From NCBI RefSeq assembly GCF_017348835.2, contig NZ_CP072317.1: a stretch of DNA of 64,000 nt, one strand, 5' to 3'. Positions within the stretch are counted from its first letter, which is position 1, and each line of letters begins with the position of its first letter. Below, piece after piece: positions 57,384 through 57,479 of this stretch. The notes under the pieces were generated by a model. It was not told the DNA's origin, did not search any database, and saw only the letters and a list, made by a program, of their open reading frames with translations. Origin of the DNA: Escherichia coli. GTDB lineage: Bacteria; Pseudomonadota; Gammaproteobacteria; Enterobacterales; Enterobacteriaceae. The translations under genes were made by a program, and so were the position numbers.

Positions 57384-57479
57384 TTATTTATCTGCGTAAT
57401 CACTTTTTTTAGTCTGTTTCAAAACAGTAGATGTTTTATCTACATAACGCATTTGATAACGCATTTGGAATACCAACAT
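57384..57479 (-). CDS. ermBL: erm(B) leader peptide ErmBL, variant with internal 12-nt tandem duplication
   Basis: Manual translation MLVFQMRYQMRYVDKTSTVLKQTKKSDYADK; canonical leader recalled as MLVFQMRNVDKTSTVLKQTKNSDYADK. Confidence 0.65.
   Translation of the reverse strand: MLVFQMRYQMRYVDKTSTVLKQTKKSDYADK

Follow-up and report, generated by a model that had tools for sequence, protein, structure and literature searches.

In a 64,000-nucleotide (nt) stretch of Escherichia coli DNA (contig NZ_CP072317.1 of assembly GCF_017348835.2; hereafter the window), the 23S rRNA methyltransferase gene erm(B) is preceded by an attenuator whose leader peptide, ErmBL, carries a perfect 12-nt tandem duplication. 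This is probably the standard IS26-associated erm(B) regulatory allele of Enterobacterales, published as Cluster_1 (PMC11264731), deregulated mainly by a lesion in hairpin 2, the RNA structure that covers the Shine-Dalgarno sequence (SD) and start codon of erm(B), with the duplication acting as a modifier at most. By sequence, synteny and arrest motif, the locus belongs to the ErmBL-erm(B) attenuator family, of which it is a deregulated derivative lacking a stable SD-sequestering hairpin. The allele is already known, being RefSeq-annotated, very common and the majority form, and its sequence is not new in itself; the additions made here are modest and consist of the attribution of deregulation to the hairpin-2 lesion rather than to the duplication, and of a likely mis-description in one paper. 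Anatomy, distribution and folding energies were computed here, and the Cluster_1 phenotype is taken from the literature. The elements of the leader and attenuator, in window coordinates, are the following.

57487-57494, minus strand: SD of the leader, AAGGAGGG, read from the sequence, 7 nt ahead of the leader ATG
57384-57479, minus strand: ermBL leader open reading frame (ORF), 31 codons plus stop, translation MLVFQMRYQMRYVDKTSTVLKQTKKSDYADK, corresponding to the coding sequence WP_013362819.1
57456-57467, minus strand: duplication copy 1, CAAATGCGTTAT, encoding Q5 M6 R7 Y8, predicted by folding to pair, together with the junction, with segment 2
57444-57455, minus strand: duplication copy 2, encoding Q9 M10 R11 Y12, the copy adjoining the arrest site
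57435-57449, minus strand: arrest motif R11-Y12-V13-D14-K15, the counterpart of R7-x-V9-D10-K11 in the canonical leader; its Asp would be the P-site residue
57392-57406, minus strand: attenuator segment 2, AAAGTGATTACGCAG, containing base 57405, through which N21K gives hairpin 1 (segments 2:3) one further A-U pair
57353-57403, minus strand: ermBL2, a second small ORF with a GTG start, VITQINKYVRLIPTSD followed by a stop, intact here and described in PMC8274638
57256-57285, minus strand: hairpin 2 (segments 3:4), the structure covering both the SD of erm(B), AGGAG (57271-57267), and its ATG (57258-57256); it bears the lesion GTGATTAC>GTAAATTAC at 57265-57263
56521-57258, minus strand: erm(B) 23S rRNA (A2058) methyltransferase coding sequence, 245 amino acids (aa), NF012220.1, 564.9 bits against a cut-off of 525

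The leader of the window is 31 aa long and begins MLVFQMRYQMRYVDK, whereas the canonical leader of enterococcal plasmids counts 27 aa (MLVFQMRNVDKTSTVLKQTKNSDYADK, RefSeq WP_001814874.1) and was rightly given in a preliminary description of this DNA as MLVFQMRNVDK... It lies upstream of erm(B) on the same strand, at a distance of 125 nt. Read on the minus strand, the leader start runs GGAGGGATTCGTC ATG TTG GTA TTC CAA ATG CGT TAT CAA ATG CGT TAT GTA GAT AAA, in which an exact 12-nt unit (ATAACGCATTTG on the plus strand, CAAATGCGTTAT on the minus strand) is repeated in tandem at 57444-57467. The two copies match at 100% of positions (Tandem Repeats Finder), the phase of the repeat is unambiguous, its flanking bases not extending it, and alignment with enterococcal erm(B) loci encoding the 27-aa leader yields a clean 12-nt insertion. 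When the window was simulated 300 times under a first-order Markov model keeping its base-to-base transition frequencies, an exact period-12 duplication never appeared. The duplication announced in the preliminary description is thus real and perfect, the coordinates given there (57446-57469) being 2 nt too high. An Rfam scan of 57150-57600 at E<=1 returned no family, and NCBIfam offered no model matching the leader peptide.

In silico editing of the canonical allele showed that the window allele equals the canonical one plus exactly five changes, of which the duplication, the only one caught earlier, is just the most conspicuous. The others are N8Y (AAT>TAT), found in both repeat copies and therefore older than the duplication; N21K (AAC>AAA, base 57405); A>G at 57292; and GGAGTGATTAC>GGAGTAAATTAC at 57265-57263, between the SD and the ATG of erm(B). 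In the 3' arm of hairpin 2, this last change replaces G by A and inserts a further A (GTGATTAC>GTAAATTAC). Compared with the canonical ErmBL-erm(B) system (Tn917/pAMβ1 type, WP_001814874.1), the window shows about 94-95% identity over 311 nt and shares the promoter -10 box, SD1, the leader frame, the VDK core, segments 2 and 3, ermBL2 and erm(B), differing by the five changes and by the replacement with IS26 of the sequence upstream of the -10 box.

The consequences of these changes were assessed by folding. In the canonical leader, segment 1 (UGCGUAAU, codons 6-8) pairs with segment 2 (AUUACGCA), the alternative pairing of segment 2 with segment 3 (GUAAUCACU) forms hairpin 1, and segment 3 paired with segment 4 (GAGUGAUUACAU, the SD and AUG of erm(B)) forms hairpin 2. 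The competing hairpin 1 is present in the window (AAGUGAUUACG with UGUAAUCACUU), as an extended AU helix in the minimum-energy fold, and for its lower half Table S2 of PMC11264731 lists a shift from -9.54 to -10.65. Hairpin 2 is worth -13.6 kcal/mol in its canonical form (z = -5.3, matched by none of 200 shuffles) and -5.4 kcal/mol in the window (z = -1.7, matched by 11 of 200), with -7.8 kcal/mol for an enterococcal form bearing C>A at position -1; the same paper gives -12.15 for the canonical hairpin and -6.10 for the altered one, its two sequences being identical to those folded here. By folding, the stable hairpin sequestering SD and ATG, which is one defining feature of the attenuator, is thereby lost from the window.

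A second measure was the opening cost, that is, the ensemble energy needed to open the region from AGGAG to three bases past the AUG, computed under different ribosome masks. For the free transcript, the canonical allele required 12.9 kcal/mol; introducing only the hairpin-2 lesion brought this down to 5.1, and the window allele needed 6.7, whereas the duplication alone left the cost essentially where it was (12.9 to 13.2 in the N8 background, 10.5 to 10.5 in the Y8 background, and 13.1 to 13.1 in a second run). With the leader start masked, as by an initiating ribosome, the duplication alone lowered the cost by 1-2 kcal/mol (11.0 to 9.2; 7.3 to 6.2), to be set against the 7-8 kcal/mol removed by the hairpin-2 lesion alone. 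In the enterobacterial background the cost was 4.8 without and 6.7 kcal/mol with the duplication. The window allele stayed at 3.5-6.7 kcal/mol in every modelled state of ribosome occupancy, and dropping the duplication from it shifted the cost by at most 2 kcal/mol, in either direction depending on the footprint. Folding the leader with and without the duplication, the check proposed in the preliminary description, hence spoke against its suspicion, and in silico the duplication does not by itself expose the erm ribosome-binding site. In these models, the erm(B) binding site without arrest would be about as open as the canonical one with arrest, the predicted cause being the hairpin-2 lesion, helped by the N21K pair. 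By mean unpaired probability of SD2 and AUG, the window allele appeared less accessible; this measure was set aside, the predicted pairing partner being the translated 5' end of the leader.

The arrest function of the peptide appears to be preserved. In ErmBL, R7 and V9-K11 are critical for arrest, while Asn8Ala is without effect and alanine is tolerated at residues 2-6, a stretch that is disordered in the cryo-electron microscopy structure (PMC4935803; PMC5118997). The Staphylococcus aureus CM05 leader used for toeprinting is of the Y8 type and arrests at D10 (PMC5118997; PMC11264731). The repeat is situated before the arrest site, QMRYVDK is untouched, and the six residues up to the arrest point (QMRYVD) are identical in the window and CM05 leaders; further up the tunnel, the window leader has R and Y where CM05 has V and F. 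As the last six nascent residues are unchanged, we infer that arrest is retained and would be expected at Asp14 (57440-57438).

The phenotype of the allele can be approached through published work. In a survey of 21,525 erm(B) upstream regions, Cluster_1 gathered 5,289 (PMC11264731, mSystems 2024) and is the largest cluster in Table 1 and among the rows of Table S2 that were compared. In those rows, its hairpin-1 string (AAAGTGATTACGCAGATAAATAAATACG...TCTGTATTTGTTTATAGATGTAATCACTTC) and hairpin-2 string (GATGTAATCACTTCAGGAGTAAATTACATG) are identical to the window, and N21K, G203A and the inserted A are likewise shared; the difference is that the paper lists Δ1-12 / Δ(MLVF) (Table 1), and not a duplication, where the window has one. 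In single copy in S. aureus JE2, the Cluster_1 construct V11 conferred minimum inhibitory concentrations (MICs) of erythromycin (ERY) and clindamycin (CLN) above 256 µg/mL, compared with an ERY MIC of 12 and a CLN MIC of 1.5 µg/mL for the CM05 reference in the same setting (PMC11264731). V11 produced basal ErmB without drug and was further induced, which the authors blame on a weakened hairpin 2 (PMC11264731). The earlier proposal that a leader rearrangement had made resistance constitutive is therefore borne out as far as basal ErmB is concerned, going by the literature on Cluster_1, but expression is still inducible and the duplication is probably not the cause.

The listed deletion most likely results from the way in which the sequences were aligned. 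When a CM05-type query of 946 nt whose first codon was the leader ATG, the query design of PMC11264731, was run against the window by BLASTN, the alignment began at query nt 13 and reported C63A, G203A and one inserted A, which are exactly the changes listed for Cluster_1. The first 12 nt are dropped because the penalty for a 12-nt gap exceeds the score of the 12 matches it would add. In PLSDB, a genuine Δ1-12 leader junction was not found, the search returning only 28-nt partial matches to the non-duplicated Y8 allele (243 records). Judged from sequence, the published Δ1-12 is most likely an alignment artefact of the duplication, and Cluster_1 and the window allele would be one and the same, mis-described in the paper.

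The allele is widespread. With a 321-nt query made of the IS26 end (10 nt), the leader and the start of erm(B), at least 99% identity was found in 269 of 274 E. coli records, from 266 of 5,426 complete genomes and mostly on plasmids. A 44-nt probe specific to the duplication junction, searched in PLSDB, hit 458 plasmids (Escherichia 235, Klebsiella 102, Shigella 54, Enterococcus 46, Salmonella 15, Citrobacter 3, and others). Enterobacterales plasmids matching the 321-nt query came from Escherichia (240), Klebsiella (104), Shigella (54) and Salmonella (15), nearly all with the junction, which occurred in only about 6% of the enterococcal plasmids matching that query. In this plasmid search, the first 12 hits were 100% identical over the query part including the 10 nt of IS26, and the enterobacterial allele is fixed to an IS26 end. 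The duplicated leader had been presented as a departure from reference leaders, yet the same 31-aa sequence is a RefSeq entry, WP_013362819.1, annotated in E. coli as '23S rRNA methyltransferase attenuation leader peptide' and 100% identical to the window leader, and about 98% of E. coli erm(B) records and the 458 plasmids share it. Under the refuting condition set in the preliminary description, that reference leaders show this sequence too, the duplicated leader is no anomaly. A full-text literature search for the peptide string MLVFQMRYQMRYVDK found no paper.

The N21 version of the 31-aa leader is the enterococcal RefSeq entry WP_001809736.1. All five enterococcal duplication alleles sampled carry Y8 and the duplication together with N21; hairpin 2 is intact in one of them (E. 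faecium VB3025), and the other four have C>A at -1, directly before the erm(B) ATG. N21K and the G>A change with inserted A were present in all three enterobacterial alleles sampled, the window included, and in none of the five enterococcal ones. The non-duplicated Y8 allele is common (at least 243 plasmids in PLSDB, by 28-nt partial matches). Y8 and the duplication being shared, with N21 and an intact hairpin 2 found in Enterococcus, the duplication must have arisen in a Gram-positive Y8 background. A further enterococcal derivative was seen in E. faecium pAA94_1 (about 1420-1723), in which a leader stub that keeps the duplication, without its ATG and SD, is fused to an unrelated stretch of about 180 nt reaching GGTGATAACATG of erm(B), the attenuator being deleted. 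This stretch may resemble the omega region of Inc18 plasmids.

Taken together, these data suggest the following scheme. The ancestor would have been a Gram-positive ermBL-erm(B) translational attenuator, now transcribed most likely from a hybrid promoter made of a -35 box in the IS26 terminal repeat and the native -10 box. A drug-bound ribosome would still pause on the 31-aa leader, now at Asp14, but the G>A change and inserted A in hairpin 2 would strip most of the pairing over the erm(B) SD and ATG, so that the RNA switch is largely bypassed, while N21K would add a base pair to the competing hairpin 1. Through the hairpin-2 lesion and N21K, erm(B) would then be made at a basal level, with appreciable Erm(B) in the absence of drug and residual inducibility. 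The duplication would have been inherited from an enterococcal ancestor that was already Y8, and its effect, small as we infer it to be, would make it a modifier at most and not the cause of deregulation.

Several points weigh against this account. V11 may carry a literal deletion of nt 1-12 instead of the duplication, in which case its phenotype may not fully apply, and that phenotype was measured in S. aureus and not in an enterobacterial host. Equilibrium folding of an AU-rich leader of about 300 nt is noisy, the duplication may exert a kinetic effect, and in the models it moves the opening cost by up to 2 kcal/mol either way according to the ribosome footprint assumed. The whole-transcript fold also predicts that the freed SD2 pairs with leader codons 3-5, which was discounted because that region is translated.

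The explanation first proposed, in which the duplication itself makes erm(B) constitutive, for instance through mutual pairing of the two segment-1 copies, which would release segment 2 to disrupt hairpin 2, is quite unlikely. In its favour, an 8-bp hairpin (-6.2 kcal/mol) can form between the two copies, the whole window leader folded to minimum energy has segment 2 paired with segment 3, which is the 'induced' pairing, and duplications in erm leaders are among the changes seen in constitutive isolates (PMC5118997). However, the 'induced' 2:3 pairing also needs the hairpin-2 lesion, and the opening costs assign to that lesion alone the large drop, the duplication alone bringing none in the free transcript, be it N8 or Y8, and only a slight one with the leader start masked. 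The duplication moreover sits upstream of the arrest site within translated codons, where ribosomes melt weak hairpins, keeps QMRYVDK and coexists with an intact hairpin 2 in E. faecium VB3025. The idea that the repeat was created by faulty sequencing or assembly, or is a mutation private to one plasmid, has only the general proneness of short tandem repeats in its favour and is refuted by the identical junction in the 458 independently deposited plasmids of at least eight genera and in the 266 complete E. coli genomes.

An effect in the other direction is improbable as well. Copy 1 with the junction (UGCGUUAUCA) might hold segment 2 (UGAUUACGCA) despite arrest, since this pairing lies 14-23 nt upstream of the P site, where the footprint of an arrested ribosome ends or has already ended; the duplication would then weaken induction, and the hairpin-2 lesions, C>A at -1 in Enterococcus and G>A with inserted A in Enterobacterales, would be compensatory. 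The 1:2 region folds at -15.1 kcal/mol with N8, -11.4 with Y8 and -15.3 with Y8 plus the duplication, through copy 1, so that copy 1 and the junction are predicted to restore the 1:2 stability lost through N8Y, 12 nt further from the arrest site. When a stalled ribosome was modelled, the duplication raised the opening cost from 9.6 to 13.0 or 11.0, and a hairpin-2 lesion accompanies it in four of the five enterococcal duplication alleles and in all enterobacterial ones, compared with none of three non-duplicated alleles sampled. This effect is nevertheless sensitive to the footprint assumed: placing the 5' edge at -15 or -18 abolishes or reverses it. Copy 1 would also be covered if a second ribosome queued behind the first, few alleles were sampled, and the 1:2 folds have weak z-scores (-1.6 to -2.0). 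Clusters lacking the duplication commonly bear hairpin-2 lesions too, for example cluster_3 (2,745) and cluster_4 (1,109) in PMC11264731. The opposed effects attributed to the duplication, copy-to-copy pairing freeing segment 2 and copy 1 pairing with segment 2 to impair induction, both appear weak and model-dependent, and a role as modifier or neutral passenger would rank above those of cause of constitutivity and of uncoupler. A bolder version, which we regard as doubtful, holds that the commonest erm(B) regulatory allele in public genomes has never been characterised as it really is, its duplication having been entered as a loss of four leader codons, the first ones, in the only population-scale study, and that arrest is partly uncoupled from the RNA switch by the segment-1 copy at the ribosome edge, expression being set by the weak hairpin 2 and mRNA stabilisation. 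If true, erm(B) regulation in Enterobacterales, including azithromycin-resistant Shigella and E. coli, would depart from both the textbook ErmBL model and the V11 data.

Rearranged leaders are familiar from other erm genes. In the erm(C) and erm(A) attenuators of constitutively resistant staphylococci, tandem duplications and deletions hit the segments that pair with the erm SD and expose it directly. The window resembles these in that its rearrangement is also short and in the leader, but segment 1 is what is duplicated, upstream of the arrest site and with no exposure in the models; on this modelling, the duplication itself lies outside the class of leader rearrangements that expose the SD. 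Leader rearrangements upstream of erm genes are mentioned generically in PMC5118997. Closer relatives differ in instructive ways. The ermBL-erm(B) region of S. aureus CM05 (EF450709), the experimental reference for ErmBL arrest, shares Y8 and G176 with the window, its leader being MLVFQMRYVDKTSTVLKQTKNSDYADK; unlike the window, it has no duplication, retains N21 and an intact hairpin 2, and is tightly inducible, with the ERY MIC of 12 µg/mL in single copy mentioned above (PMC11264731). The enterococcal 31-aa leader (WP_001809736.1; pWZ1668, pTF51-2-1 and pB54-poxtA) has the same duplication, with Y8 in both copies, but differs from the window by N21, by a hairpin 2 that is intact or carries C>A at -1, and by an Inc18 or aph(3')-III context rather than IS26. 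The ermBC gene of E. coli plasmid pIP1527 (GenBank M19270), cited as an example of constitutive erm(B) (PMC8274638), has in common with the window that it is an erm(B) in E. coli.

The hosts of the allele, which sits on IncF plasmids, include E. coli, Shigella, Klebsiella and Salmonella; azithromycin is a front-line drug against these bacteria, and whether erm(B) is constitutively expressed in these hosts is clinically relevant. For the interpretation of erm(B) leaders, a conspicuous duplication should not get the blame when a less visible lesion by the SD is the better candidate, and a catalogue entry with an apparently artefactual deletion matters wherever constructs are reused or alleles classified.

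Around the attenuator, the promoter and the neighbouring insertion sequences comprise the following elements.

57537-57564, minus strand: predicted hybrid promoter, -35 TTTGCA (57564-57559), 16-nt spacer and -10 TATAAT (57542-57537), 10 of 12 matches in a consensus scan
57551-58370, plus strand: IS26 copy adjoining the erm(B) promoter, with a terminal inverted repeat at 57551-57564 (GGCACTGTTGCAAA) and a 240-aa transposase ORF at 57596-58318; the junction is annotated as IS26/IS15DIV elsewhere
54934-55753, minus strand: IS26 copy on the downstream side of erm(B), in the opposite orientation to the upstream one
51347-52166: third IS26 copy, from the terminal-repeat search

The -35 box lies inside the IS26 terminal repeat, which ends 8 nt from the native -10 box, and alignment places IS26 in lieu of the native enterococcal sequence upstream of that box; IS26 is known to donate -35 boxes (PMC10840416). 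In E. faecium E7933 plasmid 4 (1501-1530), the end of an IS1216 element adjoins this erm(B) promoter too, at a distance only one base greater than that of IS26 here. The presence of IS26 and IS1216, both of the IS6 family, at one promoter suggests repeated or related capture by IS6-family elements. The erm(B) segment (55754-57550) is flanked by 820-bp IS26 copies with 14-bp terminal repeats in inverted orientation, and is therefore not a simple direct-repeat translocatable unit.

The window as a whole is of the IncFII, blaCTX-M-bearing E. coli plasmid type, its best matches being CTX-M-15 and CTX-M-55 plasmids at 99-100% identity. Between the IS26 copies at 51347-52166 and 54934-55753, a 291-aa ORF (52536-53411) is most likely the blaCTX-M gene named among these plasmid matches. 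A fragment resembling a Tn3-family transposase, named by eye from its translation, follows the upstream IS26 (57551-58370) at 58324-58929. At 4552-4676, 13.9 perfect copies of a 9-nt unit encode (QQP)n close to the C-terminal end of a minus-strand ORF of 750 aa, an array that looks like the polymorphic TraD repeat of F-type plasmids. Lastly, the hexanucleotide CAGTAG is perfectly repeated 9.5 times at 40025-40081, encoding poly-Ser in a probably spurious ORF on the plus strand.
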